A DNA stretch of 64,000 bases from Psammoneis japonica (lineage: Eukaryota). Each line of letters begins with the position of its first letter. Within the stretch, counting starts at the first letter, position 1. Shown here piece by piece: positions 1 to 29,079 of the stretch. Below the pieces are notes generated by a model that saw only the letters and a list, made by a program, of their open reading frames with translations, ran no database searches and had not been told where the DNA came from. The translations under genes and the position numbers were made by a program. The stretch lies in contig QPGO01000004.1 in assembly GCA_008632985.1 (NCBI GenBank), positions 248,001-312,000 of the forward strand, read 5' to 3'.

Positions 1-3000
1 TCTCATGAATTTTTCATGAGAGTGCGGCACATTGAAAAGAGTGAAATTTTGAATGTGTTCTACAGAAATTGTGGTCAGCAAAGCAGTGCAACAACACAGA
101 ACACAGCAACACAGTTGTTGACTTCATGTGTTGGTTTTTAGGATTTGCTGAGGGCACTGAACAGCCCAAAAAGGACAAGAAGCAATGTTGAACAAAAACC
201 GCAGCTGCGCAGTTTGTGGGTAAGAGCATCTCGTGTTGTTGCCGCTTTGGTCAACAAATGGTGTGAATGATGACATTGTTCATGATGTGTGCTCTCCTCT
301 TGTCGAGTTGATTCCATTTGATGGAATGTTGTGGTGTGAAGACCTGTGGCACGTTGTTTGCGTGGATTTCTGCACTGCGTTCACTGAGGAAAAAGCGGAG
401 TGAAGCCAAAACAGCACATGAATGTGGGTTCACTGCTTGTGTTCACCAACGTCATCACAGAAAGCATGCATGCCAGCATGACATGGTGAACATGAAGGCG
501 GTTGTCTTCACTTGTGATCTGTCACTTTGCTGCAACTGCCTGCCTGCCAGCAACTGCCAACTGCAGTGCACTGAGATGAGAAACACCACCTCCATCGTCA
601 GTGCAAAGAGAGCAGATCCCAGCCCCTGCGATTTTTGTAACTCTCTCACACCGCTCCTCTGCCCCCCAATCCCAGGCCTCTCAAATCCTCAGTCAGTCTC
701 AAGAACTTTCTTGGCATCACCCTCTCCAACCACCACCTCTCTCTTCTTCTTCTTTTGCCAACCCTTCCCTTCCCAACTCTCTCTGCTCCCACTGCCCACC
801 TGTCTGTGCTGTCAGCCTCCCTTTCTCCCCTCACCCCCAGCCCCCTGCCCCTGCTGCTCTCTGTGCATTGTGTTGCCTGCCACCTGCACCAGCCACCCCC
901 ATTTCTTCCCCACCCCAGCTGCCATTGTTGTGTCTGCTTCTGAGTTTCAAAATGACTTGATTTCACACTCAATGCTTGTCAAACTTTCTTGACTCTGCTG
1001 TTTCAGTGCTGGCACACAATCAACTCAGAACTCCCCCTTGCACAGGTCAACAAAACAGCTGATCTTTGAGACAACTGATTGTGCACAAAGTGCACATGTG
1101 AAGTCAGCTGCTCCAATTTTTCTTGAAAAAAAAAGGAACTGGAGCACCCTGGTTTTTCTCTTTAAAAAAGGAGTTGGAGCACCCTGTTTTTTTGTGGCAG
1201 TGTGAACTCATCACGACAGTGTGAAGGACATGCGCAATTGTTGAAAACAGCCAAACAACTTGATGAAAGAAACAAAAAAAGCAGCTCAAAGGTGCATCTG
1301 AAAGGCTGTGTGCAGGTTTCCATTGTTTTCTCATTAAAAATAAGTGCTCCCCAAAATGTTTTGTGTTTGTTGGTTGCTTGTGCCACCCTCCAAGCAACAT
1401 GGAGACAACAGCCGGCACTGCAAAACAACCAGATCTGAGAAAAAATGCAACAGAAATTGGGGGGAAGTCCACAAAGATTCACTTGCACAAAACACACAGT
1501 GAGACAGAAGAAGAGCAGGCTCAGTGCAGTGCCCCAGCACCTCAGCAGCACACGTGTGTCTCAATGTTAGAAAGTTGGGGTTTGACACCGTTTTTGGAGC
1601 ACAGACAGACAATGTTCAAGTGAAAGCAACAACACTGACAATTGTTGGCAACATGGTGAGTTCAGACAACTCAAAATGAAGTTGGGTCTCTTGCTTGCTT
1701 TTTTAGCTTCTGCACTTGGGCAACACAGCAATCAGCACAGAGTGGTGTTTGCAATCCACAGGGTGAGTTTAGGGATCAGCAAAACCAGCACAGATTGGTT
1801 GGCAGTGAGCCATGAAATTCCAACACTCACCTTGGATGAAAACACATGCCCAGGACAACATCAGCAACAGCGCCTTCTCTTCTCATTCTGTGCTCACCCC
1901 CCCACCCCCCACCCCCTCTCCCAGCTGCACAGCCAAAGTTCCAGAAGCAAGCCTCTTGTTCTCAATGGGGATGAGGAGTGCTTTCAAAAAAAAAACACAA
2001 TGTGCTTCAAACCTGCATGTGCAGAAAGACACCATGAGTTGTGTGGGCACCACTGTGCATGTGTGGCCCAGTGCACTTGCCTGTGGCCACATCTGCTTCC
2101 ACATCATTCAAAGATGCAAACATTTTGTGGTGTTTCTTCCATTGCTTTGACAATGGGTTCTGAGCATAACTCGATTGCTCTTGGGGGGGGGGGGGGGTGA
2201 CATTGACATTTTCAGAGTTCTTTTGGGCCACATTGTCTGACAGGGCAACAAAAGCTGGGCAAAAGGGGCAACCAAAGGTTGCTGCTGATCTCTTGTGGAT
2301 GCTGTTTGCTCTCAAGGGTTCAAGGAGCATCATCAACACCAAAGCCCATGTCCTTGCTCACTTGGAAAAGCTGTGATTCAAAGAAAAACATGTGGCTGTA
2401 GTTTGTGATCCATCAGGCCAAAGCATCATTCAAAGAAGGCTGCCATCAGCCAAGAAGCTGAGCACAACAGAGGGGCAGCATGCTGGTCCAAGCCACTCAG
2501 CCTGCATTGGGCTGAGATCATGAAAATGTGGTGTGCAGTGCAAGTGGAAACATGTGCAACAATTGATCAGAAGGCAAAGGGCACACTGCAAGAAAAGGTC
2601 TGCAAGCAAGTTGCCATGGAACCACACAAAATGGAGCTTCCAGTTGCAAGTGGTCCACACACCAAGCAGACTGCAAGATTTTTCAACCAACAGCACAGCA
2701 GCTCTCTGTGGACACGCTGGTGCTTTTCATTGGGAATGAAACCAATTTTTCATTTGTGGCAGAAGAAGCCTGTCCCCAGCTGACAAAGTTCAGATTTGAC
2801 ATGGAGAAGATGCAAAAGAAGAAATGCAGGATTTGTGGTGGTGATGAGGTTGGGGATGTCACTGTTGTGAGTGGCTTTGCAAGCAGGTGTCCCATGTTGG
2901 GAACTGAAAACTTGGCACCCACAGCAGAAAACAGACAGCAGTGGTTTCACAAACAGCCAGTGTGCCCCTTGATTGGTGGTGTTTTGGATGTCTGCTCCTG

Positions 3001-3329
3001 TTGTTTGATTGGCGCGGGGTTCTTGGTGGCAAGTGGAAATGAATTCCCTGCAAATTTAAAGAAAACTGCTGCATTTTCAGGCATGTCTCACATGCCATGA
3101 TTTGAGATGCCTTGGCACATTTGTGGGAAAGCAATTTGTTGCTGCCAAACTGTGATGTCAAGTGCCACAACCTTGTTGATGTCCTTCTGAAGTCAGCTCC
3201 ACCAAAAAATGAGAAAAACAAACAAACCTGGTTTAAAGTGCTGTTGCACCTTTGCCCAGCAACACCAGCACCAGCTGACCCACATCTCCGGCACACCCTG
3301 CCAGGGGTGCGGCAGAAGAAGTCAATGCA

Positions 3330-6300
3330 GACAGTCTGAATCGGCATCTCTCAGTGGAGTCACCCAATGGAAGCAACTGGTGATGGTGCGTGTGCCGCAA
3401 AGCACCAACTTCTTGGCTTCTTTGAGACTTTCTTTGAGTCTGGGCTGGACCATTGAAATCCAATTTTGTGTGTGCATTGTTGAAAAGGCTTTGTGCTCTT
3501 CTGCTGAGCTGAGCAGCACCTCAGTCTTTGGCCAAACATTCCTGGTGCTTGTTGTGCACAGCTGTCAACTCGGCTTGGACTTTTCGTTGCTGAGATGACT
3601 GCCTGGTGTCTGCATCATGTCCGTGTGCATGCTGGTTGTGCTCTTAACACAGATTCCACCATTGTTTCACATGAACAGTCCCACCTGCACTGTCCAATTT
3701 GGTGGCTGTTTGTTCTCTTCTTGGCAATTATGAAGGATGCCTGAGTCATGCAAATGTCCAGACTGGACCACATTCCAAAGAGTGGAGCACCTTCTGCCAA
3801 ACACTTGTTGCCTTCCTGCATCTGATTGAGCTTGCCACAGGGCTCTGCAGCAGCAGTCCAAATCATTGGGATGCACCATCTCATGGTTGAACCATGCTTG
3901 AAGAGAATCCAACAAAAAGTCGCTGAGTGTGGGCATGACATCAACCTGGTCACAACAACAACACACAAGCCTTGCAGGAACTTTCTGCGCCAGGCTTCAT
4001 TGTGCAGACATCGCAGCACATGATCTCTGTCTTCCATTGGATGCTCACAGTGCAGACAATGATGTGGTTGGACAGAATTGTGTCTGTGGACTGTCTTGTT
4101 GGTGGGCAGGAGATCATGAACAAGCTCAAATGTTCCAACTTGTTGCTTGGAATGCCTTTTTATGAGGATGGCATGAGCGCCCCAATCTGTCAGATCAACC
4201 ACACATCCAGATGCCACTGATTGTGCTCAACAATGTGCTCCAGGAGTTGTGGGGCAGCAGCAGTGCACCTGATTTGCCATTTGAAGCTGGGTGTCAAAGT
4301 GCCATCTTGCAGGATCAAATGAGAGTGACAGTGAGGAAGGGGCAGGACCATTGAAGTGTCCAAGTGCAATGTGGCATTGAGTGGAAGTGTGTGGACAGGG
4401 GCATGTCTGTCTTGGTGTCCTTTTGCCCACTTGACTTGCAAAGGAGATGAGAATGTTCTGGATCTGTGGGATTCTTCCATTGCAATGCGAGTGTGCAACA
4501 TCTCATTGACAACATCCCAGTCAGAGGCGAGGGTGTTGGCTCCATGGTGTTGAATGTGAAAAGCTCTGATGTCATCAGATTGGTCCCCGGGAGACAGAGC
4601 AGGAAGGGCAAAAGACATCTGCTTCAGACAAGACACCAGGGCTTTGTCATCACAATGCACGTCCATCTCCTGAAATTCTTTTCTTCGGTGGCATTCCACA
4701 AATTGGCAGATGAAGTGGATGACAGAGAGAATCCCGCATGCTTCTGCACGGCATGACAATGGTTGTCTTCTGAAAACTGGTCCTGCACAAGAATCTGATG
4801 ATGGAGCTCCTGTGAGTGCAATTGTCCATTCAAAAGCAGCTCCTTCATTCATGGAACCATCGCTCCCTGTGGTCAATGTTGAGGAAGAAAAGTTTTGGAT
4901 CAAAGTGTCAGGGGACACGTGAAATTCAAGCTCTGTGAACAACATTGCCTCCCATTGAGGTGAAGATTGCAGCACATCATGGAATGTGTCCAGAAACTGG
5001 GGAGATGGTGAATCCAGCAAAGAAGTGCAAGGCAAGTTGAATGTTCATCTGCTGTCTTCTGTTGCAGAGAGCTCAGCTGGAAATGATTTGTTGGATGGGA
5101 CCGGTGCTGTTTCGAGTTCTGTGACAGAGTTTGTTCTGGTGCCAATCACTTGAAAAATGTTGCACCCTGAGGGAGACTGATGCACAAATGATCCTCTGAG
5201 GGGGGGAAACACGCGGATGCCTGCATGTGCATCTTGGAAGGAGGCACTGACCAGTTGCTGAGTGGTTCTTTCAGTGTCTGTGATGATGGATGGCACAGGG
5301 AAGCACAGAACTTCTTCCATGTGGTCCAAGCTCCAGTTCCTGGTTTGTGCTGCTTGACATTGTTCAGAGCACTTGAACTGCTCTGAAGCAATGGGTCTCC
5401 AGCAACTTTTGTAGCATCCAAGGTCAAGTTGTCAGACAAAGTAATGTCAGACACAGACAGCACCTGCAAGCACAGACAACAGCTGCCAATCCATCTGATT
5501 TTGTGGTGGGAAAAGAGTTGAGATTGAAGGGCAATGTCCACAATGCACACTGGTCATTGTCACGTTGAAGAGGGAGCATGCCGGAATGTGTCAAGCACAC
5601 TTTGCCGTGAATCCTGTGTGAGAATGAATGGACTGAAGTGAACCAGCAGGATTCCATGTGTGGGAGTGCGGTGTTGACATCCCACAAGAAACTCGCTCCT
5701 GTTCCCAAGATCAACTGGATCCAGAAAATTCCATGTGCAAGAGTTTGTGGGGTTGATCTTCTCCCATCTTGAGGTTTGTGATGCCTCTGGAATGTTTCAA
5801 CAACTGCTGCACTTGAGCCACACCTTGTTCCATGTCCAGCAATCAAAATCCTCCGCCACCAAGAGATTGATGTCCAAACAGGATGAGTTGTTTTGCATTT
5901 CTGTTGCACCCACATTTGGTGAATGCAATCTGCGTTGCTTTTTGTTGAACAGCCAACAACTCTTTTGGCAGAAAAGTCGAGTTTGGAAGTGCATGAGTCA
6001 TCAAAGACAGGCGGCATGCATGGCAGCAATGCCATGTTTCTGTCTGATTGATGGGACAGGATCGGAGGAAGAGAGCTGTGATGTCACTTTTGGTCAGGAG
6101 TTTCTTCAAATGGGTCTTCTGGGTGCCAATTGGAGCAACGTAGTGTCCAAGCATTTTATGTGGAACACATGCCAAAAGTTGTTTGCTGGATTGGGAAGTG
6201 GGCCTGTCTGCTGAGAAGATTTTGATGTCAAGGTCGTCATGGCATGGGTGGACACACAGTTTGCCATGCTCAGTGAAGTCCCATTCCACCATGTGGAATG

Positions 6301-6548
6301 AGCACTTCAGCAACTCGAGTTCGTGACCAGCAGCATCAAGCAAATCACACCAAAGTTGGTCATCCTGTTGGAGGGAAAAGGACAAATCAAACGCAGAAGG
6401 TTGGGGACTTGCGCGAAAGTCATTGACCTGTTTAGATGTGTCATTGATGCACCCTCAATTGCAAACTTGGATGAAGAACCTGCCATTGGGGTTTTTGAAG
6501 TGTGCTCCTGTGGCTCTTGCATCAAAGATGTCTCAAAAAGGTGGCTGC
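3330..6548 (-). mobile_element. Ambal-like non-LTR retrotransposon, 3' part (RT C-terminal half, RNase H, C-terminal Zn finger), decayed
   Basis: Minus-strand fragments: GCINDT (from GYVDDT, ~6430-6455), QLWCDLLDAAGHELELLKCSF, RNase H motifs SDGS...SCRAEACG...HCDDKAL...SDWDV...KWAKGHQD, CLHC...EDRDHVLRC, ending RTITSCF near 3365. Many frameshifts. Confidence 0.8.
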
Positions 6549-6735
6549 TGATACAATGCCGAAGGTCAATGATGACAGAGGCATGAAAGACTCCCCAAGC
6601 ACTGGGACTGTGATGACACAAGCACTGGCAGATGAGAAAGTGAGAGGCAGATCTCAGAGAGATCTGCTCGTCCATCTAAATGGTCCGGTCATCATCCGCA
6701 CACAGTCTGTCCATCATGTGACAGATGGGCTGACA
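6549..6735 (-). repeat. 3' LTR of Copia element
   Basis: Aligns without gaps to 12960-13146; preceded on the minus strand by the purine tract GGGGAGGG. Confidence 0.95.
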
Positions 6736-6743
6736 CCCTCCCC
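6736..6743 (-). other. Polypurine tract
   Basis: ccctcccc on plus = GGGGAGGG on minus, abutting the 3' LTR. Confidence 0.8.
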
Positions 6744-9700
6744 TGATCTGTGACATCCCGAAAATAGAAGACAGTGCAGATCAAAACAAAGAATGGGGAT
6801 GATGTAAACAGAGTGATGAGAAGAAGGACACCAAAGGTGTCCAAGCCCAATGCGCATCAAACAACGGGGCAATGTGCAGCAGGGGAGGCCACCGCGGAAA
6901 AAATGTCAACGTCAGTGTCCCATCATGCATCGAGCATGGTGAGCATGGAGCACCCACCCAAGAGCCTTGGCAAGGTCATTGCTGGGGTTGACAATGCCAG
7001 GGACATGTCTGGTGACAATCTTGCCTGCTTCCTTCCATTCTTGAATCGCGAAGAACTGAGTCTCAATGTGGCGCGAACACTCGGTCGGAATCGAGTGATT
7101 GACGATCTTGATGGCTGATTCGTTGTCAACACACAAAGGGGTCAGCTTCATTTGGGAACAACCAAGGTCATGCAGTGCATGGCAAAGGCAAAGAACATGC
7201 TTGGCGGTGGTGCCAGCAGCACAGAATTCTGCTTCTGTAGAACTTGCAGCAGTCACCAACTGTGTCTTGCAACAAAAAGAGATGGCAGTGCCAGCCAACA
7301 TGCAAGCACATCCCGTCATAGAATGTCGGTTACGAAGATCATTTCTGCACGCAGCATCAAGGAAGGCGACAAGTTGATGGTCACACTCGGGAGCAGGGAA
7401 TGATGGGAGGGATGGATCGGGACTCAAGCGTTCATGCGGATGGGCAGGGAGGCTCGGGTCGCGTTCAGATTTCTTGGAGTTCAATTCCCAATGCTTGGTG
7501 CATTGAAGACACTTGCGTGCACCTTTGAGTGCATCACAGTGTGCTGCCGCAGGGCAAGTGGAGAACTTGGACAGGGTGGTGATGGCACAGCCAATGTTGA
7601 GTCGACAGACAACATGTGTGCATGCAATGGCTCACCAAGTGGGGCACAGCATCCAAAACCAGCAGCTTGTTGCAGCTCCGCATGTTCCGGTGTACCTTCA
7701 GCAGGCCCAATGTCAGTGCAAAGGTCACGAATGGAATCCACCGGGATTGGAGTCGCCTTGAAGTCATCAAGCAGTTCCTCATCACTTGGTGCAGACCAAC
7801 CGTGTGAGAGGCAAACACGGTCAATGCAATTGTGGACAGCAGTGCCAATCGAGTCATCACACTGATGAACATCCACGCCATTGAATTCCTCCAGGAGGCC
7901 AAGATGCTTGAAAGGTGGGGCAGTTTCCGAGTCCAATTGAAGGGCTTTGCCAATCCTAGATCGTCTTGGCAATGGACTCCTTGGGGCAAGCAATGGCAAA
8001 GTCATCAACCTGTCGAAGGAGCAAAATTTTTTGTCCGTCAAATGCAGCAGAGTGGACACACTTGTCGTGAGCAGTGTTCCGAAATAAAAGATTCACATCA
8101 GACAAGATGCCATCAATGTGATTCTCCCAGAGCATGCCGGCTTCTGGGTGTCCTTGGAGAGCATGTTGCATGGGAAGCACCACACTCCTGTCCAGCTCCT
8201 TTCCAAAGCAAGACTTGCACCAAGCAGCATGTGCATCGTCAACAGCAACATAGACAGGATGTGACGGGCGGGGAGAATGGGCACAGGCATCGCGGGCATC
8301 ACTGCCATGTGCCGGACAACCCACTGTAGCTGCCAGGGCAAAGAACATCCGCTGGTGTAACTGCTGGAAATGCTTGACAGCATTGTCATGGGTGAAGACT
8401 GGTTGATGATCAATTGACACAACATGCGCGCCTTTGATCTTGTTGCATGTCGCCTTCAAGTTCAAGAAGAGACAAGCAGCAGGGGAACCACGTTTAATGT
8501 CTGAGACGAAAACACATTGGCACAGATCATCCACAGCCAAAGAGAAGCCACAAGTGGAATCCGTGAAAGGCCCTTTCATGGTGCGTGTGATGGTCTTGGC
8601 AAAAGGGTTACCATGAAAGTGAAATCTCATCCACAGCAGTCTCTTCAGTGTCAGCAGGGAGGGCAGCACCAGCCTGAGTGCATTGCAAATGAACAACATT
8701 TGGGGGGACAGAGTCATGGGATAAATCATTCATCCCCTCATCATGCCGGATGTGCTTGGCCAGCTTTGCACGTGATGTCTCGGTGTCGCACCACAAAATG
8801 TTCTTGGTGGCATCTGGAAGATGTCCCAAGAAAATTCCTTTGCGTGACATGGTCCGGAATTTTGCTGGACGGTGATTCGAAGCACGCACCCAAACGCGAC
8901 AACCAAACATGCGGAAGTTCCGAAAATCATCCTTCCAACAAGTGGCAAGTGCAATCGGAGCAGCAGTCTGCCCCCGGGATGGTGTGGCATTCTTGATCCG
9001 AATAAAATGATGAAAAGCACAGGGCCAAAACTTGATCCGCACTGACAAGCATTGCCCGAATGGCATTGGCAATGGTCAAATGACTCCGTTCAACTGGGCC
9101 ACTCTGATTTGAAGCGTCTTTCCCAGTGGGACGAGTTGCACAATGAAAGTCATCCTTGAAGAGTCGCCGAACCACCGGGTTGTTGTGCAACTCACCTCCT
9201 TGATCCAGAAAAACACATTTGTCAGGACATTTCGGCAAGTGATCCTCCAGAAAGTGGCAAATCCAATTCAAAGGGGTGGCCTTTGAGACACAAGTCGCAC
9301 CATGGAGGCGCTTTGTTGTGTGGTCATAAACAGTGATCCAACATGTCTCTCCACTCAACCCAACACAGTCCTTGGTGTGCTCGGTGTTCTTGGAGCAGAG
9401 GCCAGAGAAAGAAAAGTCTGCTGTGAGACCTTGGCAGGGTTGGGTGGCAGTCAAGGTGGCATCAGGTCCAGCGGGTTCCTTCTTCTGTTTAGCCCAGACA
9501 CAAGTGGGGCAAGTGTCAAGTCAAGGGAGGATGCACCATGTGCAAACTTTGGAATGCCATCAACATGTTTGTGAGCATGGCAAAGACAGTGATCACTGGG
9601 GTGCCCAAGACGTTGATGCCATAAAAGGCGTTCCATGTTGGCCTTGAGGGATTGGATGGGAGTGTTCTTCTCAGTGTGCTGCTCAAACGGAGTGTCTTGA

Positions 9701-12700
9701 CATGCTCAGGGGATTAACTTCCTTTGCATGCGGAGAGCATCATTTTGGCGTGCACGACATGTTTCAATCATGTGGGCCGAGACCGCTTCACATTCATCTG
9801 CAAAGGAGGGGTCGCTTGTCTTGAGGCGCTCGATTGATGCATCCAGCTCATCATGGGATTCTGGGAGGATGAGTGGGTGAGTGTGACACTTGCCATTGAT
9901 CAGTTTCCCATGAAAATGACATCCTGACTCTTGCACAAACAATGCCGTGCAACAAACTTGCAGGTGCCAAGATCATGGAACTTGAGCACACAATCAATGT
10001 TGCAATCCATGCAACAGGCGCCATTTTGGCAGAGCAGCAATCGCTCATCAACCAAGGTGGATTGGAACTGTGGGTGGTGACATGCACAAATCTCAACACA
10101 GCCACAGGAGTTCTCCGCAGGCATGCAAAGGCATCCAAAGCTGATTGGGACAGCTTCATGTCCAAGAGCTGGATTGACAGCAAGCGGGCACGGGGCGGAA
10201 GGAGCAAATGCCTGGTGTCGATGCAGGAGATCATGATCTCCAGTGCAGGCAATGTTGGCACCAGTGTCAAGTTGAGCACAGCGCTCATTTGGTGCAAACT
10301 TGACAGCATTGACAGCACAGGCAGTGCGGAGTGGATCTGGTGGATCCAACTCATCATCGTGAGGTGAGTCAATCAGGGCAATGCTTGCAGAATTCGCTGA
10401 GGTGAAACCATCCTCAACAGCAATGTCGTCACAGGTGAGATCAACAAACTCAGCAAAAAAATCATTTTCCTCTGAATCTTCCCTCCCCTGTTCCAAAGAG
10501 TCCGGAACAGGATCAACACCCAATGTGCCATCAGGGAGAATGGGATTGTCATCAGGCAACTTGGTGGTGTCAGGAGAGACCTTCGAGTCGGGGGCACAGT
10601 CTACATCAGTCGTCGAAGAAAGAGGCAGTGCAGCGGTAGATGATGAGACGGTCAGTCCCTCTTTCACAGTCATCCCGCTGACATTGGTCTTGTCTCGGTG
10701 GGCAGAAAATGGGCTGCGTCGGAGATCCGAAACTGGCTGCAATGGCCCGATTGAAAATCTGGAGACTGGACACCAGAACCAGATGGAGAATCAGATTGTC
10801 CTTGATGAGGCGGCAACAAACCTTGTGGTCCTTGAAATTCAGAGGCACGCATGGCCGCTTCTTGCTTCAAGAATTGACAAAAACGCATGTGGAAGCCCTT
10901 GATGTGTGGATTGTTGTTCAAGACAGGACACTCATGGAACAAGTGTTGTCAGAACAAACAAGGCATGGTTTCTTGGAGGCCTCTGTGGGAGTGACCTTGA
11001 GTTTGTGTGCCGAAGCCGAGTGGACATGATGGAGAAGACGGTCTTAATCTGCAGAAGGCACTTTAAGGTCATTCAATTCACCACAGAGGGAGTCAAAGGC
11101 ATCCTGGGGGAGTTGTTGGTGCTGGCAGCTTCAGGTGACTCGTCAGCATCCTCTGCAATGGGAGGGACATCCGGAACAGTCAAGGAATTGACATCGGCAG
11201 TTGTGCAATGCGCATCTACAGGGTTTCGATCCCATGTGCGGCATGGATTGCAAGGACTCGCATGAGTTGCAAGAGATGGACCATCCAACTGATGAAGGAA
11301 GTCAGACAGAGTCTCAACAATCTGTGCATCCGTGTGCTTCTTGAGCACAGCAGGAGACTTCTTTTCATCCCCAGCAGCACAGATGAGAACTTGGAGCACC
11401 CAGTGTTCTTGACAAAAATGGTCATCTCTCGTGAGTCATCCAACGTAGAGTCCGCATCAAAGACACAAGCATGCAGCTGTAGAAAATCCTTGAAACACAA
11501 GTGACAGTCCGTCAATGACAGATTTCCTTGAGTGGGGTGGGAATCTACCAATCCAGCAGCCTCGTGATCAAAAGCTGGATGGTTCTCGTAGACAATCTGT
11601 TTGAGAGCCTTGCAGCCATTGCCATGGCATGAGGCAACAATCCGATGACACTTGCTGTTCTTGGGGAACACATCAGACTTGGAAAGGATCTTGTGAAAGG
11701 AACTTTGAGCTTCTTTACAATGAACACACATTCGTTGGGGCAAGTCATTGTCTTTGCCGTCACCAATCTCAAAACCCTTCTCACCACCATGATCCTTGGT
11801 GAAGCACCACAAAGGATGCACGTAGCATCCCGAGTCGAATGAGTGACTTGGAAGTTTTGGTGCCATGCACACATCCCAGCGGGAGAGTCATCATGGCAGA
11901 TTGGAGGTTCCCTGAACAGCATCTTCTGGTCAGGGGTCAAGCTCATGACAAACAGGGCACCATCATTGAGAATGATGTGATCAGACCCATCAACACAGAG
12001 TGGCAGAATCCATGGTCACAATGGACAAGAGAGCTCTTCAGGGTGACGGCACCACATTCTTTGTGGTCGTAGCATGCACGAACATCGGGAGGCAGGGTGT
12101 TGGGATTGAAGAGACATTTGGATGCTGTGGAAGTTGCAGGAGTTCCAGAGGTCTTGCCAGAGGTGGCAGAAGGCAGAGCATTGCTCGACGCAAACTTGTC
12201 AAGGGCAGTGATTAAGTCATCCACACCAACAGTTGCAGGTCCTGAACTGGTCGTAGATGAGGGTGCAGGCTGTGGGTTCTGCGGGTGGGGCGTGAAAGAG
12301 AACTCCTTCCAATCCTGATAATTCCACATCATGTTGGGGCCAACACAAATGTTTTGTGTAGAGATGACAATGTGTGTGACTTGATCGTGGTTCCGGAGAT
12401 TGGTCTTGATGATCAATGAGAGAGCTGTGGGCATCATGCGGATCGCACAAGGCCTGGTGGAGTCTGTGGTGCAGGACGCAGCTTGATCCACAATCATCTT
12501 GACAGGCTGCATGTCCATGGGATGAACTGTGCAAGGTGGGAACGCCGTGTTGACGATGTGATCTTGAAATGGGTCAACAAAATCTTTCTTCGATTGAGCA
12601 TGTTCTGGATCATCAAAGAATGGGTCCAGATCAAATGTTGAATCCGCACACATCTTGTTCAAACATGTGTGGAGATGAGGTGTTGTTGTGTGTTCTTGAA

Positions 12701-12947
12701 ATTCACAATGGATCTCTGCAATGGATGTCGGAGCAGCCTTTGCAAGGTCGGGAGATGCCATGGTTGCACTTGGTGAGAGCATTTTTGGTCATGCACACGT
12801 GGAAATCTGGTGTGTTTCTATGATCATGAAAAATGCCGGGAAAGCGAGAAAAAAATTGTTGGAACAGACAACGAGGCTTGCTCGGTCGGCTCACAAAACA
12901 AATGAATTGAGACAGAAAGCTTGGCGCAGAGTTCTGTGGCACAGCAC

Positions 12948-12959
12948 AAGGCCACAACC
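12948..12959 (-). other. Primer binding site (initiator tRNA-Met fragment type), mutated
   Basis: Minus strand reads GGTTGTGGCC directly after the 5' LTR; resembles the Copia PBS GGTTATGGGCCC with TA->TG. Confidence 0.6.
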
Positions 12960-13146
12960 TGACAGAATGCCAAAGGTCAACAATGACAGAGGTGTGAAAG
13001 ACTCCCCAAGCACTGGGACTGTGACAACACGAGTGCCAACAGATGAGAAAGTGAGAGGCAGATCTCAGAGAGATCTGCTCGTCCATCTAAATGGTCCAGT
13101 CATCATCTGCACACAGTCTGTCCATCACACAATGGATGGGCTGACA
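12960..13146 (-). repeat. 5' LTR of Copia element
   Basis: 187-bp direct repeat of 6549-6735, followed by TSD GCTGC. Confidence 0.95.
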
Positions 13147-14265
13147 GCTGCGTGAAGTGCTCCAATGCCATGGGGAATTCCCACTTCCTTGACCGGTGCC
13201 ACAAAGGGGTTGTTCTTCTGAATGAGAGCAACTTCGCTGATCCAATCCCAACAAGGTCCAAAGCCAACACCAAGCATGGTGTGGGGCAGCCATGTCATTT
13301 AACTTCAACCACATGAGAGTCCATGCCATCACTTTGGGAACACAGTCCAACAATTGCAGGAATGTTTCTGTCAGCAACAGGAGGTGCGGTTGTCATTGCT
13401 CATTGGCAGCATCTTGCAAGAAGCTCTCAACATTTCTAACATCAAGTTCTCAAGAAACACTGGAGTCTGGGCTGACAAAAGGAGTGGCATCTGTAAATGC
13501 CAGGATTGTGCATGTGATGGTTCTCCATGTGCTGAGCCAATTCTTGCCATTTGACACTCGTGACGATTTGAAAATCTGCCTCGCAGATGTGTGTGACTCA
13601 CAGCCGGTGGATTTTGTTGTCACCTGGTTCTTTGAATGTCATCAAGTTGACAATGTCTTTCCAATGGTCATGTGAATGGCCCACTTCAAAGTGCAGCTAA
13701 TTAAGTTGAGGCAAATCGCAAACAAAGTTTGCTGAACTTGATCTGGGTGTGCCCTCTTTGAGGTCGGATTGGCTTGGGCATCTTGTTCTTTAGCATGAGA
13801 ATGAGGAGCATGCAATGCTTTCCAGCATCCAAGATGCAAACCCAATTTCAGTGAGGTGGAGGTGGATTTGACCACATCTTTAATTTGGAGAGAAAGGCAG
13901 TGGATGAAAGATGGCTCCGCACTGTGGGTGGTGCTTGTCTGCGAAGATGCTGCATGAGCAAAGAAGTTGCAAGATTCAACTGACCGGTCTCATGCTCCCC
14001 ATCTAGAATGAGCTCTGCAACAATGGCATTGCCTTTGCAACCCAGGTCAACTGACAAAGGAAGAGCTGTTGGTGGAGCACCTTTGGCTTGGCCAAAATGA
14101 TGTTGATTTGTTGCTTGCAGTGCTACAGCCACATCTTCTGGGGCATTGACTGTCATCCAATTTCACATGTCTTGGGATTCTCATTTGGGTTTGCAGGCAC
14201 TTGAATTGTCTTTACGCTAGAAGCAATCCCCTTTCATCTTGCAGGCATTGATCTTCCTGAAGACT
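13147..14265 (-). mobile_element. Ambal-like LINE, 5' part (RT N-terminal half), split from the 3' part by the Copia insertion
   Basis: QVPANPNENPKTCENWMTV, NQHHFGQAKGAP, and RT motif PLCGTGQGSGNSP next to the TSD; RT continues beyond the Copia at 6548. Confidence 0.8.
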
Positions 14266-14493
14266 CCACCAAAAAATGAGAGGAACAAGCAGCACTTGAG
14301 TGCCAACATGGCAAAGACAGCAGTTGAAGGAATTGCATTTGAGCCAGCAAAGACTCACCCAGGTGGAACAAATGAGAGCACCTTTCCAGTGCTCCTCCAG
14401 GTTTGCCTCTGACATGCTGCATCAAATGTGACAGGTGCTGCACTGCTTGTTTGGTTGACAGAGCCAGCACAATTCTTGCTGATGAGACTGCAC

Positions 14494-15786
14494 TTGGAGG
14501 GCAAGGCAGTCGGCGAACGGCTTAGCTATGTCATTGAAAATGGAAGAGACATCATTCGTAATCAGCGAAACTTGGAATTCTTCACCAATGGATGTCGATT
14601 CATGATTCAGCTCCTACCGGTGACCGTGGTGGCTCCTCGATATTTTGCTGGCGCCATTGAGCTTGGTGTGATTTCCCAAAGTGTGGGCGCCTTCAATCAC
14701 ATTCTGAACGACCTGAGTATCATTGTGAACCAATTCGAGCAATTGTATAGATTCTCGGCAGGAATTGATCGTCTGGCTATCTTTATGGAGGCGATGCAGG
14801 AAGTGGATCCCGTTCGAAGTGAAAATGTGACGACATTGATGAAATTGCCTTATGGAAATAGCTCCGATGCCAGTTGTAAGATTCATGCATTGGACTCGGG
14901 CATCACTTCAGAGTTTGGCAGAATCGAGTTGAAGCGCCTTCCTTCCACCAGTGTTGCAGACACAGCTCCCAAGAATGGTGACACAGCAAGTTTGCTCTCT
15001 ATGGACAATGTGGATCTGTGCACTCCCGATCGCAAACGATGCTTGATTCGTGACTTGTCCTTGCAGCTCAATGAAGGAGAGAATTTGTTGATTGTGGGCA
15101 ATAGTGGTGCTGGAAAGTCATCGCTCTTGCGTGCCATTGCTGGATTGTGGACTGCCGGAAATGGCAAAATTACACGACCTGGAGACGAAGACGTCTACTT
15201 TTTACCGCAGCGTCCATACTGCACCCTTGGATCCCTCAAAGATCAGTTACTGTATCCCAGTTTGGAAGAACTCAATGCAACAGATGCTTTTCCAGATGGA
15301 CATGTAATGAGCAAATCTCACTACCTGAAGAAATCTCTCAGCGATCAAGATCTACTAGACGTCCTGGAAAAGGTTGATCTAGGTGAGCTGGCAGCTCGAT
15401 CGGGCGATGGCGATCCCATAAAGGGTCTTGAAACAGTGTTGGACTGGAGCAACACTTTGTCGCTTGGAGAGCAACAGAGACTTGCATTTGGACGAGTCTT
15501 GGTCAATCAACGCAAGCTCGTGATATTGGACGAGGCTACAAGTGCACTGGACATGGTAGCAGAGTCGAGGATGTATACATTGTTAAGAGAAATGGGACAA
15601 AAGAATCTCTTGAAGAATGGAGAAATGACAGCTCCAGGATTGACTTTTGTTAGTGTCGGACACCGACCAAGTCTTCTTGCCTATCACGACAAACGACTTC
15701 GACTGAATGGAGAGGATCGACATAGCCTAGAGCCCATTGAGAAGACCGCAATGGATGCTGAAGCATTCAACATTACTAACTTGTAA
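14494..15786 (+). CDS. ABC transporter family D half-transporter, 3' part only (N-terminus absent from window)
   Basis: End of ABC_membrane_2 region (PRYFAGAIELG...QSVGAF), Walker A GNSGAGKS, FLPQRPY..LGSLKDQLLYP, signature LSLGEQQRLAF, Walker B ILDEATSALD, SVGHR. Homology begins abruptly at LEGKAV, at the island edge. Confidence 0.9.
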   Translation: MEGKAVGERLSYVIENGRDIIRNQRNLEFFTNGCRFMIQLLPVTVVAPRYFAGAIELGVISQSVGAFNHILNDLSIIVNQFEQLYRFSAGIDRLAIFMEAMQEVDPVRSENVTTLMKLPYGNSSDASCKIHALDSGITSEFGRIELKRLPSTSVADTAPKNGDTASLLSMDNVDLCTPDRKRCLIRDLSLQLNEGENLLIVGNSGAGKSSLLRAIAGLWTAGNGKITRPGDEDVYFLPQRPYCTLGSLKDQLLYPSLEELNATDAFPDGHVMSKSHYLKKSLSDQDLLDVLEKVDLGELAARSGDGDPIKGLETVLDWSNTLSLGEQQRLAFGRVLVNQRKLVILDEATSALDMVAESRMYTLLREMGQKNLLKNGEMTAPGLTFVSVGHRPSLLAYHDKRLRLNGEDRHSLEPIEKTAMDAEAFNITNL

Positions 15787-16160
15787 ACGCAGGGTGTTTC
15801 TAACCGCTGGGGGGGGGGGGGGGGTATTAGTTTTTGCAATGAGATTGCCGACACAAGGATCTCGCGCTCGAGTCCGAGTGATTGATGCGGCCCTAGAACA
15901 AGCCCTCACACATGACTCTTTGTCCCATGAAATCACTCTCACTGAACTTATATTTTTCTCTCGTCATTTCTTTCGACTCTGTCGAGGCTTCCCCCACTGG
16001 GTTTTTTATCGCCTTGGCAGCAAGCTGGTCGCAGCACCCAACTTCGGTTTTGGTGTCCAGAGCCTTTTGCCTCCTTGGAGGCCAGGCAGGTTGGCTGGGC
16101 GACTGAGTACTGAGTAAATCCAACCCATTCTCTACGCAGGCCTGCGCTGGCTCATGTTAT

Positions 16161-17487
16161 TCATTGCTCATGAGCCATCTGAATAATGTTGTGTAGGCGT
16201 GCTCTTGCATCATCCAGGATTGTTTTATGGACCTCGATGTTCTCAACAATTGGCGCGTGTGTGCTACCACTTACACTATCTGTGATGTCATAGCCGGTTG
16301 GGTATCGTTCCACAAAGCTCATTATCTCTCTCCCAATGTTCGTTGTTGAATAAACCACTTGTGGATCACGCCTGTCACTTAAATCACATACAAACTCGTC
16401 CGTTTCCACCAAGATCTTTGGCTCGGCTTGTTTTTGCGGAGAGGCAACTTTGATCTCGGGCCTTGCATGTTCGGCCCGAAGCATTAGCTCCAAGTGAAAG
16501 AGCTCTCCTAGATCGTTCATGAGTGCAACCTCCCGCGTCAACCCGAAACCAGGCGGGGCCGCATAGTCGGGCCATTCCCGGGATGCGAGATGCAGCAAAC
16601 TATTGTGAAATAAATTGAGGATCTTAGGCATGCCTTCGTCCCGGTGGTGGCTGGAACAGTTCCGAAAATGGAGCAACGCCAGTAGTGCGATGGATCAACT
16701 CAGTTTCTGCCCACTGCATACGACACGACTCAATTCCTCATCAGAGATATCCTGCGCTTCTCCCAAGCTGCATATGCGGGCGGTTTCCGAAGACAGGTTA
16801 CGCATATCTTGTACAATGTTGTGAAGTCCTGTTGCAAGCAGGACCAAGGAATCTTGAACATTGATCGGACAGATGAAACGGTTGGCAATTCATAGTGGCA
16901 CATCCGTATTCGTACAGACACCACGCTGATTGGTTGTACGGGATATTTTTCCCGGGCAGTACCACAACACAGTCTGATTGAGCGACATAGTCGTTCATCG
17001 ATTCAAGTCGCTTACGAAAGATTTTGGTCGCATCCACATCTCTGGGATGCTGCGGCAAACAGGAATAATCAAAGAAGCTACCAATGTGGTCTTCCTCCCC
17101 TATCCCCAAAGGTTCCGCGAGGTGGATACGGACGCTCCCAATGATTCTCATTTCTATGTTTTCCGTGCCTCCTGTGTCCAGCCATTGGTTGTCCATCATC
17201 GTATCCGTCTGCGTGATGTAATTTTCAAACCAATCCCCACGCAACCAGAACTCATGATTTGGGACTTTCACCAGCTTTCCGTGGCGATGCAAAATATCCC
17301 AAACTACCTTAGCGAACAGTTCGCCGCCATCGGGGTCGTCGCTGTTCCATCTGTGGGACACAAAGACAATATGGTCGCACTCGTCGGCACCCACAAGCTC
17401 CATCTCAATTTCCGACGACCACTTGGGAAAGGTACTCCTCCCGCGAATGGCAGTAAGCTTGAGGATGCGCAAGTTGGGGTTATTCAT
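16161..17487 (-). pseudogene. HET-domain (heterokaryon-incompatibility/TIR-like) protein, apparently disrupted
   Basis: FVSHRW...DPDG, FFDYSCLPQ..R...F...L.SM..Y, Y.QSAWCLYE motifs. Joining to ORF 16161-16676 needs a frameshift near 16830 and passes an in-frame TGA near 16695. Confidence 0.7.
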
Positions 17488-20379
17488 TCGTAGGGGAATA
17501 CGTCGCTGTTGCACCTTGTCAGACACATCCTGTTTCCTGTTTGTAAAAAGCAATGAAGTCTCTCTGAGGCGTTGAAGCTTGACGAGCGTTTTTTGCCGTC
17601 ATACCGGTACTCGTGATTAAAACATTTACCCTGGTATCGGGATTCAAACTTAGCGAATGTGGCAAACAGACAGACAGACGGCGTGACGTGGAAATCGAAT
17701 GTTCAAGCGAAGCTGAACGATCATCTCGAACAGTGGTGGCAGACAAGAGCACACAACAATTCTAAGTAGAACGACTTGTATGACCCGGAATGACAATTAT
17801 GACGTGCTCCGGTGTGGCAATGTGTAATAGATCAGTTTATCAGACCCAAGCTTTGCCTGCTGAGTGCCATGGCGGTTCCATGGGGGATGGCGGATGGCCG
17901 ATGGCGGCTGGGGTGGCCACTTGCAGCAGTCGATGGAGACAAAAGGGATGATCATTTGTGTTGATTTAATCACATGTTCAGCTGCAATTGCAGACATCAC
18001 CAAACCACAAGCAATCTTGCCTCAGAGGAGGGACAGATCCTTGGGAGCCCATGTTTTTCTGCCTGGGACAGCAACCAGAACAAATGCTCCAACTTTCGGA
18101 TTTCGAAGATTGCCCCGAGCCCAATGCACTGGAGTGCACCAATCCCTTTTGCAAAGTGATTGCTGCTGCCCAGAAATGCTGTGAGACAATGAGAGCTGCA
18201 AGTGTTCTGTTGAATGTGACAGAAGATGATGATTTGAGGATGGCCTTGCAGCGCAAGATTGAGGTGCCAGTGGACACAGCTTTGTCAGGCTTGCTGGAGC
18301 TGTGTGAGCCGCATTGCTTGGAGAATGTCATGCGGCCCACAGTTGCTTGAAAGATGTCTTGACTCAGCTCAATTTCCAGCACACTCTCCAAAATCACTTG
18401 AAGAGTTGCACCTGTGGCAGCAAAGTTTGATTTGGCAGAGGAGGCTGGCTGGCAATGACACTGCCACAGCACTTGTGACTTTTGGCAAAAATGGTGCAGC
18501 TTTTCTCCTGTCTGCTGCCAAAGTCCTTCCCCAAGCCACCAGCTGCTGTTAATTTTGCCAATTGCTCCAGGGCCAGTGGCAGTGAACAACTCATGAAGTG
18601 CTGGCGATGTGCCACTGAGTGTGCTGCCTTTTTAAATTTGCAAATGTCAGGGGCCCAAATCAATGAATCCTCATGTTCGCAGATGGCCAGACATTGGTCT
18701 GCCAAAACATGTGTGAGTGTGAGCATGTCAATTTGTTCATGACCAAACAAGTCAGATTTACAATGAATCACAGTCATTTGTGATGAATGAGTGTGATTTG
18801 GGAACAAATGAATGTCCAGCACCTCCAATGAATGTCTGTGGTTGTGGATCAAGGGTGTGCAAACCAACAAATTTGTTGCATTGCAACAAGTGGACTCCAG
18901 CATGACACTCCATTTGATGACTTTTGACAACTGACTGACAATGGATTGGGTGACTGGCATCCCAACTGGCCATTTTGCAGTGCACCCTTCCAATTCACTT
19001 GCCCCAATCAGCACCCTGGAATTCAGTTTTTCAATTTTGATTTACCACACAATGTCATTTGCAACAATGTGAGTGCTGCTTTTGTGTGTCACATGCTGGC
19101 CTGGCACCAACTCCCAGTTCAAATGTCTTGGTGCAGTTCACCATGTGTTCACCCTTGTCCCCCGACTCATCGTTGTCTTCCTCCACTTTTTCTCATTGTG
19201 CCCCACTGCAATCTTCCTGCACAAATCCTCCCATTGACCAAGTGATCCACTTGCAATGTCTTGCTTGTTTGATCTCCCTCTCCAGTTTCTCAAAGAATGT
19301 GTTTGCCCTCAGCAACCATCCTTTGCACTTCCTGGGCATCTTTCATCATGTCCTGGGTGCACCTTCTTCTGCTCCATTCCTGGAGTTCCCTGCCATGAAG
19401 TGCCAGGTGTCTCAAGCACTTTCTCTTCTTAGCACCACATTGCCTGTTGGGCAGGTTCTTGTCACTCTCTGGCTTGTTCATGACCTCCGTCAAAACGGAC
19501 AATTGCTCCTGTGTTGTTTGCTTTATTTTCACCTTCTTGATGCATTCATCACAGCTCTCCAGGGACTTCTTCTGCATGTCCTTGAACTCATTCACCATTT
19601 CCTTGGCCACACCTTGCTCTGTGGGCTCTTGAGGGTCTTTTTCCAAAATGGTGGATGAGCTTGATCCATTTTTATCCCCCAGTTTGGCAACAGTGATGTC
19701 TGGCATCATCGACTCACACAAGTCTCCCCTCCCCCCCGGTTGGCTTTCCTTCTTGGTCACTGAGCTCCACATTGCAGTCTGACATCAAATTGCTGTCCTT
19801 GTTGTTGCTCTTGTGCTCTGTGTGCCATGCAACAAAATTGTTCTTCAGGAGCATGTGGGCAAATGCCTGGGCACATGACATGCCCAACCTTGCCAGCCGG
19901 CCCCCTGATGATGTTGGCGGGGAACAGTTGTCTGTTCCACTTGGCTTGCAGCTTCACATTGGCTGAGGAAGCTTCTCTTGAGCTGATCACACTGTGTGAC
20001 AATTCTGGCGCAACTGGAGGATTTTACGATTTGCTGCTCACTCCACTCTGATTTCTCTGCAAGAAAAAGATGTTTGGTGCATCCAAGGCTCTCCAGCACA
20101 AACAGTTGCAAAAAGCCTCTGCAGTCTCTGAAAGAAAAAAGTTTGATGCAGCCAAGGCTCTGCAGCACAAACAGTTCCTAAAAAGCCTCCGCATGAAGGT
20201 TTGCATGCCGAAGCCAGACACACGCATGTCATTTGTGGGTGCCAAGTTACCTGTTTCTGAATGCAGGACATGCCAAGGGACTTGCTTGCCCACTCCCTTT
20301 TTGATGATCATCACAATCTCAATGTCAGCCAATCAATGCACGAACGGTGCCAAAAAATGTTCCTGCAGATGACTGTGAC

Positions 20380-22636: not shown

Positions 22637-22868
22637 TTTGTTGGTCCTCAGAGTCAGAGTGATGAGTGCATGTGGCATGCAAAATTTGAACAGAAGGACA
22701 ACCAGACGGATTGTCAATTCTTTTGGCTGCATGTGTGATGTTTGGCAAATTCAATTTCACATGCCAATGGTCAACAGTCATTTCCCAATGACTTTGGAAG
22801 TTGTTGATGACACTGTGATGATCATCATTGTGTCACAAGCTCTGTCAAGTTGTCTTAGTCTTTTAAAA
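22637..22868 (+). repeat. Split direct repeat A1
   Basis: Matches 28000-28208 (tttgttggtcctcagagtcagag...agtcttttaaaa) with one ~25-bp indel. Confidence 0.9.
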
Positions 22869-27915: not shown

Positions 27916-27997
27916 ACCATTGGGTTTTAATGTCAGACTGTTCACATTCAAGATTGGAACCTGTGACCTGTGGTGAAGACTTGGTTCAATGGGTCAT
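27916..27997 (+). repeat. Split direct repeat B1 (probably 5'-truncated)
   Basis: 82-bp ungapped match to 28300-28381. Confidence 0.9.
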
Positions 27998-27999
27998 TG

Positions 28000-28208
28000 T
28001 TTGTTGGTCCTCAGAGTCAGAGCGGTGAGTGCATGTGGTGCACAAATTTGGACGGAAGGACAACCAGATGGATTTGTCAATTCTTTCGGCTGTGCACATG
28101 ACATTTGGTGAATTCTCATTTCCCAATGACTTTGGAAGTTGTTGACGACACTGTGACAATCATTGTCATGCACCACAAGCTCTGTCGAGTTGTCCCAGTC
28201 TTTTAAAA
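28000..28208 (+). repeat. Split direct repeat A2
   Basis: Copy of 22637-22868. Confidence 0.9.
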
Positions 28209-28299
28209 AATTCCCCAAACCCACCTCACATCAACTGTGGCAACACTGTCAGGTCACTGGGGGATTGTTCATGTTGGGAATGAAAATTTCCCAGGCCAA

Positions 28300-28381
28300 A
28301 CCATTGGGTTTTAACATCAGACCACTTGCATTCAAGATTGGGGTCCATGACCTGTGGTGAAAACTTGGTTTGATGGGTCAT
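28300..28381 (+). repeat. Split direct repeat B2
   Basis: Copy of 27916-27997. Confidence 0.9.
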
Positions 28382-28900: not shown

Positions 28901-29079
28901 TGCTGAAGATGTGCCATGTTCCCACATCCTGCATCAAGAGGGGTCTCCTTGTTTTTCAAACAAAACATCATGCAGACCCAGAGCCCCCCGCTGGATTTTG
29001 TTGCCCAACCATCGGAAACAGCACACCATGCATCATGGCAGTGCAACCCAGAATTGAGCAGCAGAGATGTTCGTCAAGT

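Follow-up and report, generated by a model that had tools for sequence, protein, structure and literature searches.

A TpA-erasing hypermutation signature beside CpG decay in a Copia retrotransposon and surrounding non-genic DNA of the diatom Psammoneis japonica

The Copia element and the composition of its surroundings

We analyzed 64,000 nt of the diatom Psammoneis japonica (assembly GCA_008632985.1, contig QPGO01000004.1, positions 248,001 to 312,000 of the forward strand), hereafter the window, which holds a Ty1/Copia long terminal repeat (LTR) retrotransposon strongly depleted in the dinucleotide TpA. The window was divided into blocks with a two-state hidden Markov model (HMM) of TA versus TG/CA. 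Three blocks, making up ~60% of the sequence, were assigned to a hypermutated state, and two gene islands (24.5 kb) displayed a normal composition. The main features are as follows, with dinucleotide levels given as observed/expected ratios (o/e) and ORF standing for open reading frame.

4–14507: hypermutated block 1 (TpA 0.08, CpG 0.31), older host sequence carrying the nested Copia element
6544–6548: left copy of the target-site duplication GCTGC, identical to the 5 bases past the right LTR
6549–13146, minus strand: Ty1/Copia LTR retrotransposon of 6598 bp, full-length but dead, the youngest hypermutated unit
6549–6735, minus strand: 3' LTR with TG...CA ends
8761–9060, minus strand: stretch flagged by a first-pass annotation, in the integrase C-terminal (SH3-like) part of the degenerate Copia
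12960–13146, minus strand: 5' LTR with TG...CA ends
13147–13151: right copy of the target-site duplication GCTGC, a perfect 5-bp copy
14523–17838: gene island of normal composition (TpA 0.51, CpG 0.85), holding an ABC-ATPase ORF (14413–15786, plus strand)
17841–33976: hypermutated block 2 (TpA 0.04, CpG 0.19)
33981–55201: normal gene block (TpA 0.64, CpG 0.98)
55205–63997: hypermutated block 3 (TpA 0.05, CpG 0.09), the most decayed, which includes 59101–59400

The Copia element was delimited by a pair of LTRs recovered by self-BLAST (87.8% identical), and its interior was identified from protein similarity. Specifically, the Pfam domain SH3_retrovirus matched at 8611–9075 on the minus strand (E = 1.7e-8), while RVT_2 matched weakly at 7959–8729 on the same strand, at a looser threshold applied to 16 minus-strand Copia ORFs. 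The integrase SH3 domain thus lies upstream of RVT_2, in the order typical of Copia. As a reference for codon comparison, we used P0121, an intact Copia polyprotein of 1414 amino acids with 53 Tyr from an ENA assembly: in a tblastn search, its residues 88–1412 were colinear over 10277..6915 (minus strand) in 8 segments of 36–63% identity, with residues 499–643 aligned to 9036–8602. The reverse transcriptase (RT) of the element had 811 relatives at E ≤ 1e-3. CpG o/e was 0.18 in both flanks compared to 0.46 within the element, and this equal level on the two sides, with a higher one inside, fits a younger Copia nested in older, more decayed DNA. Separately, one contig of the public sequencing run X1 (depth 71.7) joins position 6532 directly to 13145, skipping 6612 nt and carrying 7 other letters in between, compared to 6603 nt for the element plus its duplication; this contig may stem from an allele that lacks the insertion, or the join may have arisen by chance at 80% likeness.

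Direct counts in 8761–9060 yielded 17 CG (19.0 expected, o/e 0.90) and a single TA (18.1 expected, o/e 0.055), alongside 28 TG and 28 CA, and 59101–59400 contained neither CG (19.2 expected) nor TA (16.2 expected), alongside 43 TG and 28 CA. Even with the TA level of the gene islands, already TA-poor, as the expectation, observing at most one TA per 300 nt has a Poisson probability of 1.4e-4. These counts are exactly those of the first-pass annotation, and the SH3_retrovirus match and P0121 alignment confirm its placement of 8761–9060 in a Copia interior. Its description of CpG as near random is accurate for that stretch but not for the whole element (CpG o/e 0.46 with 190 CG; TpA o/e 0.10 with 39 TA), and the effect is not local, as it spans three blocks and 39.1 kb. 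Likewise, its picture of nested elements applies to the Copia, whereas for 59101–59400 a transposable nature is an assumption, none of the 34 ORFs of block 3 having a Pfam match.

Across the window, TpA o/e in 1-kb bins was either 0.0–0.14 or 0.4–1.0. Pooled hypermutated blocks (39,130 nt) contained 148 TA (o/e 0.06) and 483 CG (0.21), with TG and CA at 1.83 and 1.73, compared to 1110 TA (0.63), 1265 CG (0.96), and 1.15 for both TG and CA in the pooled normal blocks (24,537 nt). With the normal blocks as the baseline, the hypermutated ones lacked 1494 TA and 1698 CG, i.e., 3192 dinucleotides, and had a surplus of 3051 TG+CA. TpA loss and CpG loss would feed the same products, leaving TG/CA at about 1.8 times expectation and TGA as the only stop codon. 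All non-genic blocks were at the TpA floor (0.04–0.12 across the hypermutated blocks), while their CpG o/e spanned 8-fold, from 0.46 in the young Copia to 0.06 in 56565–63997. The transitions between states were abrupt: at the borders 33978 and 55203, the nearest TA lay 2–3 bases from the switch (−2 and +3), beside stretches of 787 and 705 nt devoid of TA. Such stretches reached up to 1294 nt in the window, compared to at most 153 nt inside normal blocks.

TpA loss in the Copia element, its relatives, and the rest of the window

Next, we evaluated the direction of the change through codons aligned with the intact polyprotein. At 47 reference Tyr of P0121 (within 1120 aligned positions), the window displayed no Tyr and no Arg, but 21 Cys (TGT/TGC) and 18 His (CAT/CAC). 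This pattern indicates that the ancestor of the element had TAY codons (Y, pyrimidine; R, purine), each of which appears to have become TGY or CAY about equally often, and none CGY. For the 78 reference Arg of the same alignment, 29 CGN codons were kept, while CGY was replaced by TGY at 15 positions and by CAY at 4, and CGA by CAA at 2, as expected from CG decay to TG or CA. Among informative codons, TA was lost at 39/39 and CG at 21/50 (Fisher p = 3e-10). The Arg codons of 6915–10277 (minus strand) also displayed a skew, 15 TGY vs 4 CAY, i.e., more C→T on the sense strand, which could be due to chance, alignment bias, or a real asymmetry of CpG decay.

The two LTRs provide a second view of the process. 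The pair differed at 24/189 positions, comprising 8 TG↔CA swaps (16 positions), 4 CG↔TG/CA differences, 1 TA↔TG/CA difference, 1 other transition, and 2 transversions. Such swaps would be the expected trace of one ancestral YpR (pyrimidine–purine) step resolved independently in two copies, and their predominance indicates a change that is mutational, acts on DNA, and is strand-symmetric. From 1 shared CG and 4 CG/TG-CA sites, we estimated by hand, with small numbers, that CpG decay would account for ~2 swaps, leaving ~6 for TpA. Raw LTR divergence was 12.7%, compared to 1.6% when YpR sites were excluded. TA loss was saturated in the Copia at only 3/189 non-YpR differences. The TpA change hence came after both LTRs existed.

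Other copies of the family could be examined in public sequencing reads. Short-k-mer contigs of run X1 contained 61% of the words sampled from the Copia, and 2593 contigs were placed on it at ≥80% likeness, while no contigs from runs X2 and X3 were placed on it. No RNA run was listed among those containing the element. Transitions, in all four directions, made up 1072 of the 1327 variable places, 40 of which were listed and compared place by place. At two of these 40 listed places, 8394 and 11761, the window carries TG/CA where ≥90% of the other copies carry TA, which shows that the Copia family is not TA-free and that the changes are copy-specific. At 8 of the 40, the window has TG/CA where most copies have CG.

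Tyr-free relatives were also found in other data: 7/154 Copia relatives from a protein search had 0–1 Tyr, compared to a median Tyr content of 3.7%, and all seven were from metagenome contigs (6 from ENA and 1 from JGI). At 57 reference Tyr positions, these relatives displayed 17 His, 13 Cys, 4 Arg, and 1 Tyr, whereas 7 control relatives kept Tyr at 41/67 positions and had a Tyr→Arg replacement at 1/67. Three of the Tyr-free proteins (P0152, P0237, and P0272) carry Arg at one conserved Tyr, in the RT motif DDAY(A)xWY, which reflects either inheritance from a common ancestor or a change of TAY to CGY in two steps.

To resolve the mutational spectrum, we used 5 partly depleted loci with relatives at 82–89% DNA identity, taking the majority of relatives as the ancestral state. 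These came from a metagenome scan with a 6-sequence alignment (A4) that recovered 80 loci, with TpA o/e ranging from 0.18 to 0.81. Of 284 ancestral TA, 92 were still TA, 108 had become TG, 68 CA, 1 CG, and 15 other. T→C changes per site reached 0.315 when the 3' base was A, compared to 0.030, 0.041, and 0.035 for C, G, and T, respectively. The 5' base also mattered, with T→C rates at TpA of 0.38 after A and 0.46 after G, compared to 0.18 after either C or T (R 136/324 vs Y 43/244 mutated, p = 4e-10). Accordingly ranked, TA loss was 83% for RTAY, 67% for RTAR, 57% for YTAY, and 37% for YTAR, and at YTAY sites the favored strand was ahead 51:20. RTAY sites, for their part, became TG or CA in similar numbers (44:32, p = 0.21), with no bias to the element sense strand. 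The same preference was visible among the TA surviving in the window (about 147, with both-strand counts halved), which included 2 RTAY, 74 mixed, and 71 YTAR sites, compared to an excess of RTAY over YTAR (326 vs 204) in the gene blocks. Taken together, these comparisons establish the direction of the change, its dinucleotide specificity, its flanking motif, and its strand symmetry. Within single loci, TpA o/e per 500-nt bin was patchy, going from 0.45 to 0.07 in L065 and from 0.06 to 0.55 in L071, which suggests tract-wise action or recombinant copies.

We then examined how TpA loss relates to CpG loss. In the 5 loci, TA was lost at 176/284 sites and CG at 64/237 (p = 1e-15). When all 80 loci were polarized alike, 58 could be analyzed (19 had <4 relatives and 3 had <25 TA or CG sites). 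Only 13/58 lost more TA than CG, the other 45/58 losing more CG than TA, and TA loss and CG loss were nearly uncorrelated (rho 0.24, p = 0.07). TA loss reached ≥0.3 in 10/58 copies (two of which, L071 and L072, lie on one contig), with a background divergence of 0.034–0.057 in nine of them and 0.173 in one, and a CG loss of 0.16–0.42, like the rest. With few copies losing more TA than CG, and high TA loss at ordinary divergence, TpA loss is an episodic, copy-targeted hypermutation rather than a faster steady decay. The first-pass annotation had proposed that TpA is lost faster than CpG and separably from it. In the window, the codon comparison and the uniform TpA floor bear out that the two losses are distinct and that TpA loss is the more advanced; a simple age clock does not agree with the relatives. 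The annotation had also raised the possibility that the family consensus was already TpA-free, which is excluded by the 53 Tyr of P0121, the 8 LTR swaps, and the TA retained by ≥90% of copies at the two listed places.

A further suggestion, that the same process regenerates CG, was not borne out: Tyr→Arg was seen at 0/47 positions in the window Copia, TA→CG at 1/284 sites in the relatives, and TpG→CpG changes were not above those at TpC/TpT (odds ratio 1.31, p = 0.19). Nevertheless, 3/40 listed places at which the window carries CG, and the Arg at one motif Tyr in three proteins, suggest that a second step to CG happens now and then.

Outside the Copia unit, the hypermutated DNA contained few recognizable features. 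Pfam searches of 148 ORFs from blocks 1 and 2 returned one firm match (SH3_retrovirus) and two weak ones, and self-comparison of the window yielded 7 repeat pairs in all. The second and older LTR-like pair listed below (76% identical) resembled the Copia LTRs in its pattern, with differences over 209 aligned nt that comprised 10 TG↔CA swaps, 6 CG↔TG/CA, 1 TA↔TG/CA, 5 other transitions, and 1 transversion (non-YpR 6/209). The remaining features of the window include the following.

3618–4226, minus strand: possible remnant of a non-LTR retrotransposon, a weak assignment (Pfam zf-RVT, E = 0.0036, below the curated cutoff; Atlas lead to a zf-RVT cluster, score 0.92)
22637–22868: left copy of the second LTR-like direct repeat
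28000–28208: right-hand partner of that repeat, from self-BLAST
41924–44437, plus strand: PPR ORF
44543–45100, minus strand: Otubain ORF
50232–52088, minus strand: Menin ORF
52472–53221, minus strand: CpeT ORF

The last four ORFs lie in the normal gene block 33981–55201. The Menin ORF had 159 relatives at E ≤ 1e-3 (best identity 55%), and all organism-named matches were diatoms. This block also contains short tandem direct repeats at 36262–36565 and 41418–41645, with units of ~75–150 nt that are 72–83% alike; the former sits within a 529-aa ORF (35414–37003, plus strand) that has no Pfam match. At its border with block 2, 33981–34200 contains 21 TA in 200 nt, with a GC content of 0.42 across that kilobase, and represents the sharpest contrast of the window; this TA-rich segment is possibly intergenic or the promoter of the first gene. 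In the smaller gene island, the stop-to-stop frame of the ABC-ATPase ORF starts ~95 nt within hypermutated block 1 (14413–14507), and the true start codon is probably located past the border. Block 3 includes an assembly gap of 303 N at 56262–56564. A family scan of the ORFs of the 64-kb window revealed no deaminase domain.

Proposed explanation and its alternatives

We consider it quite probable that these patterns reflect a TpA-directed hypermutation of mobile DNA acting at the DNA level, plus a separate CpG decay. Under this explanation, TpA in transposon-derived DNA would be targeted for conversion to TpG or CpA, i.e., an A:T→G:C change at either base. The editing would occur on both strands, with a per-strand motif of 5'-R-T-A-3', equivalent to 5'-T-A-Y-3' on the other strand, and would stop at TG/CA without an onward step to CG. 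Superimposed on it would be a slower CpG→TpG/CpA decay, as from cytosine methylation of transposons. The TpA change occurs only in non-genic blocks, whose borders are sharp to the base, and does not depend on the loss of CpG.

By analogy with a mutation-accumulation result in Bigelowiella natans, a chlorarachniophyte (Mettrop et al., bioRxiv 10.64898/2026.01.13.699255), the process is probably a genome defense that edits DNA in situ, after its integration. The underlying chemistry might be an enzymatic deamination of adenine on DNA, with hypoxanthine read as G, to which we give slightly less than even chances, again from analogy. A modification of thymine with mispairing is a good deal less likely; it would leave the same footprint, the difference being hidden by strand symmetry. 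As a rough check on rates, ~6e-7 mutations per site per generation, a value from B. natans and thus from another organism, would erase TpA in a few million generations, over which a background rate of ~3.5e-10, likewise from B. natans, would add ~0.1% divergence, in agreement with saturation at 1.6% non-YpR divergence.

Several observations weigh against this explanation or narrow its reach. The Copia unit is the sole proven transposon among 39 kb of hypermutated DNA. Block 2 ORFs had no credible Pfam match (the sole one, ZSWIM4-8_C, is weak and below the curated cutoff), and the 34 ORFs of block 3 had no Pfam match; the ORF at 4193–5044 (minus strand) had no homologue among 2321 candidates of the protein search, and 23802–24743 (plus strand) gave no Atlas result. 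In the spectrum analysis, ancestral states are majorities of 5–6 relatives rather than states read from a tree, and the 5 loci were picked for low TA, so that their high TA loss is circular; this choice does not affect the spectrum, the motif, the fates, or the comparison with CpG. The metagenomic loci were selected via conserved peptides, which biases them to intact copies. The preceding-base test on the Tyr positions of the window Copia went in the right direction but was not significant (R: 11 His and 8 Cys; Y: 6 His and 13 Cys; p = 0.19). At 3/40 listed places, the window has CG where most copies have TG/CA, which could be subfamily structure or rare CG gain. Run X1 is possibly the assembly's own data, and hence not an independent proof of the sequence. 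Finally, the LTR differences date the mutations after both LTRs were made, not after integration, and editing of unintegrated double-stranded cDNA would yield the same picture with equally sharp borders.

This last point leads to an alternative in which linear double-stranded cDNA or excised DNA is hypermutated at TpA before integration, so that copies arrive dead and the chromosome is left unedited. Borders sharp to a few bases look as if whole inserted molecules were the unit, independent hits on the two cDNA LTRs could give TG↔CA swaps, and the TG..CA ends of the LTRs and the TA-free target duplication would survive. Yet the B. natans signature arises de novo in integrated single-copy DNA, according to the parts of the preprint compared here, and the relatives are graded and patchy (19%–81% of TA lost, 500-nt bins from 0.06 to 0.55 in one locus), which is easier to obtain with repeated hits. 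Unrelated sequence, block after block, would in addition each need to arrive saturated. Because of the mutations in resident DNA of B. natans and the graded, patchy relatives, we rate editing before integration as unlikely. About as unlikely, if marginally more so, is a single activity removing TpA and CpG alike, e.g., an ADAT2-like enzyme acting on A and C with a higher rate on TpA. TA and CG are indeed depleted in the same blocks with the same borders, the young Copia lost 42% of its informative CGN Arg at only 1.6% non-YpR LTR divergence, and the sections of the preprint considered here cite ADAT2 enzymes acting on both A and C in DNA. Against a shared agent, however, CpG varies 8-fold among blocks (0.46 to 0.06) with TpA at the floor, TA and CG loss are nearly uncorrelated in the 58 relatives, with high-TA-loss copies showing ordinary CG loss, 230/231 changes in the B. 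natans regions were A:T→G:C and not C→T in those same sections, and CpG methylation of a diatom Copia is reported in the portion of PMC2806351 considered here.

The change could in principle have occurred in RNA instead, with an ADAR-like A-to-I hyperediting of double-stranded transposon RNA followed by reverse transcription into new insertions. Retroelements do have an RNA stage, and ADAR-type enzymes prefer a 5' U, which fits TpA, as the Discussion of the preprint has it. Editing of genomic RNA alone would, however, produce only A→G, whereas sense-strand outcomes were symmetric both in the Copia (21 TGY vs 18 CAY) and at RTAY sites of the relatives (44 TG vs 32 CA, p = 0.21); the two LTRs, which derive from a single template, show 8 TG↔CA differences, and older flanking sequence is affected too. 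We regard RNA-level editing as highly improbable. Equally hard to sustain, and the least credible of all, is an origin without any mutation process, i.e., a native TA-poor composition, selection against TA, or modified bases that were misassembled or miscalled. Some base-callers can be misled when silenced DNA is heavily modified, and TpA is mildly low everywhere, with an o/e of 0.63 even in the gene islands. Nonetheless, Tyr codons replaced by Cys or His in roughly equal halves, with none kept, destroy a protein and do not represent codon choice, and miscalls, which would be the same each time in a given context, would not produce TG in one LTR and CA in the other. The short-k-mer contigs of run X1 contain 61% of sampled element words, and Tyr-free relatives (7/154) and partly TA-depleted loci occur in metagenome assemblies from other projects.

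Three further candidates were rejected: biased gene conversion or an overall AT→GC bias, as T→C at TpC, TpG, and TpT was at background; the repeat-induced point mutation of fungi (RIP), which fails on direction, TpA being depleted 10-fold and CpA/TpG enriched; and APOBEC-type editing, which fails on strand symmetry and LTR independence.

Implications and comparison with known systems

If TpA-directed hypermutation with separate CpG decay is the correct explanation, a TpA-erasing process would not be limited to one chlorarachniophyte and would shape the repeat fraction of a diatom, where it has run to completion. It would represent a second, chemically opposite counterpart to RIP and a major unmodelled source of A:T→G:C changes in phytoplankton genomes, and would point to a natural enzyme editing A:T pairs in DNA with a short motif. 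Practical consequences follow for annotation. In TA-free blocks, TAA and TAG are impossible and TGA is the only stop, and long overlapping ORFs occur on both strands: the window contains 73 ORFs of ≥150 aa, nearly all without a family match. Since such relics yield long false ORFs, gene callers would over-predict in them, while the relics themselves escape protein-domain searches (1 firm Pfam match for 148 ORFs). LTR-divergence dating would be wrong unless YpR sites are masked, as seen from the raw 12.7% compared to the non-YpR 1.6%. The signature could also serve as a genome-wide screen, through TpA o/e versus TG/CA o/e and the YTAR context of surviving TA.

RIP, known from Neurospora and other fungi, changes CpA to TpA, and thereby raises TpA, lowers GC, and creates TAA/TAG stops; a basidiomycete variant has reportedly been described. 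The process in the window resembles it as a transition-only, dinucleotide-context hypermutation of transposons that forms distinct blocks and spares genes. Its direction is the opposite: it destroys TpA, raises GC, removes TAA/TAG, and inactivates by missense (Tyr→Cys/His). Editing by animal ADAR and APOBEC enzymes acts on RNA or single-stranded cDNA and leaves strand-asymmetric G→A or A→G tracts. The likeness there lies in a deaminase-type hypermutation restraining retroelements, whereas here both strands are equally affected and the LTRs diverged independently.

The CpG component has closer precedents. CG→TG/CA changes, the mark of CpG methylation decay, are present in the Arg codons of the Copia, and CpG o/e falls from 0.46 in the young Copia to 0.18 in its flanks and 0.06 in 56565–63997. 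CpG methylation has been reported for the diatom Copia element Blackbeard (PMC2806351), and a survey of diatom DNA methyltransferases exists (PMC9998398), each considered here for part of its content. CpG loss would thus most simply be methylation-driven. Such decay cannot explain why TpA was lost; in the young Copia, TpA loss is both the larger effect and the faster one.

The closest match to the TpA component is the hypermutation of TpA to TpG/CpA described in B. natans for integrated DNA of nucleocytoplasmic large DNA viruses (NCLDV) and virophages (Mettrop et al., bioRxiv 10.64898/2026.01.13.699255), in the main-text parts of the preprint on which the following comparison draws. There, 230/231 mutations in two integrated viral regions were A→G or T→C, all on TpA; they arose de novo in some of the lines, at a rate of ~6e-7 per site per generation, ~1000x background. 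TpA-poor and CpA+TpG-rich clusters were found genome-wide, RT and DDE domains were enriched among TpA-poor coding sequences, and an ADAT2-like deaminase was proposed as the agent. The two systems share the dinucleotide, the products, TpA-depleted clusters beside normal host DNA, and a sporadic occurrence (among lines there, among copies here). A:T→G:C change on TpA is likewise what we observed, with T→C at 0.315 for TpA vs 0.030–0.041 elsewhere and 39/47 Tyr positions turned into TGY or CAY, and the blocks of the window, at 0.06 for TpA and 1.73–1.83 for CA and TG, are well past the cluster cutoffs of 0.43 (TpA) and 1.52 (CpA+TpG). The hosts differ, a rhizarian there and a stramenopile here, as does the target, the proven one here being an LTR retrotransposon. 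Depletion is saturated here (o/e 0.06 over 39 kb), compared to a Rho of 0.45 in their NCLDV region; strong CpG decay coexists with it here; and the mutations were seen de novo there, while here they are deduced from sequence comparison. The R-T-A / T-A-Y motif resolved here is absent from the main-text parts of the preprint that were compared.

In the literature searched, which left most subscription journals outside its coverage, TpA-specific hypermutation was not described for any diatom or other stramenopile. A tentative extension, which we hold somewhat less likely than its opposite, is that diatoms, and perhaps the stramenopile–alveolate–rhizarian (SAR) lineages generally, the sole other case being rhizarian, possess a dedicated genome-defense editor that recognizes mobile DNA under silencing. 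In double-stranded DNA, this editor would deaminate the adenine of 5'-T-A-Y-3' on both strands until TpA is gone. Elements would be killed through the loss of all their Tyr codons, not through new stops. Such an editor would mirror fungal RIP, would be ancient enough for stramenopiles and rhizarians to have it in common, and would represent a natural adenine editor of double-stranded DNA with a defined motif. Overall, the window carries the signature of B. natans in another lineage and on a retrotransposon, where it has reached saturation, has a flanking motif, and stands beside CpG decay.

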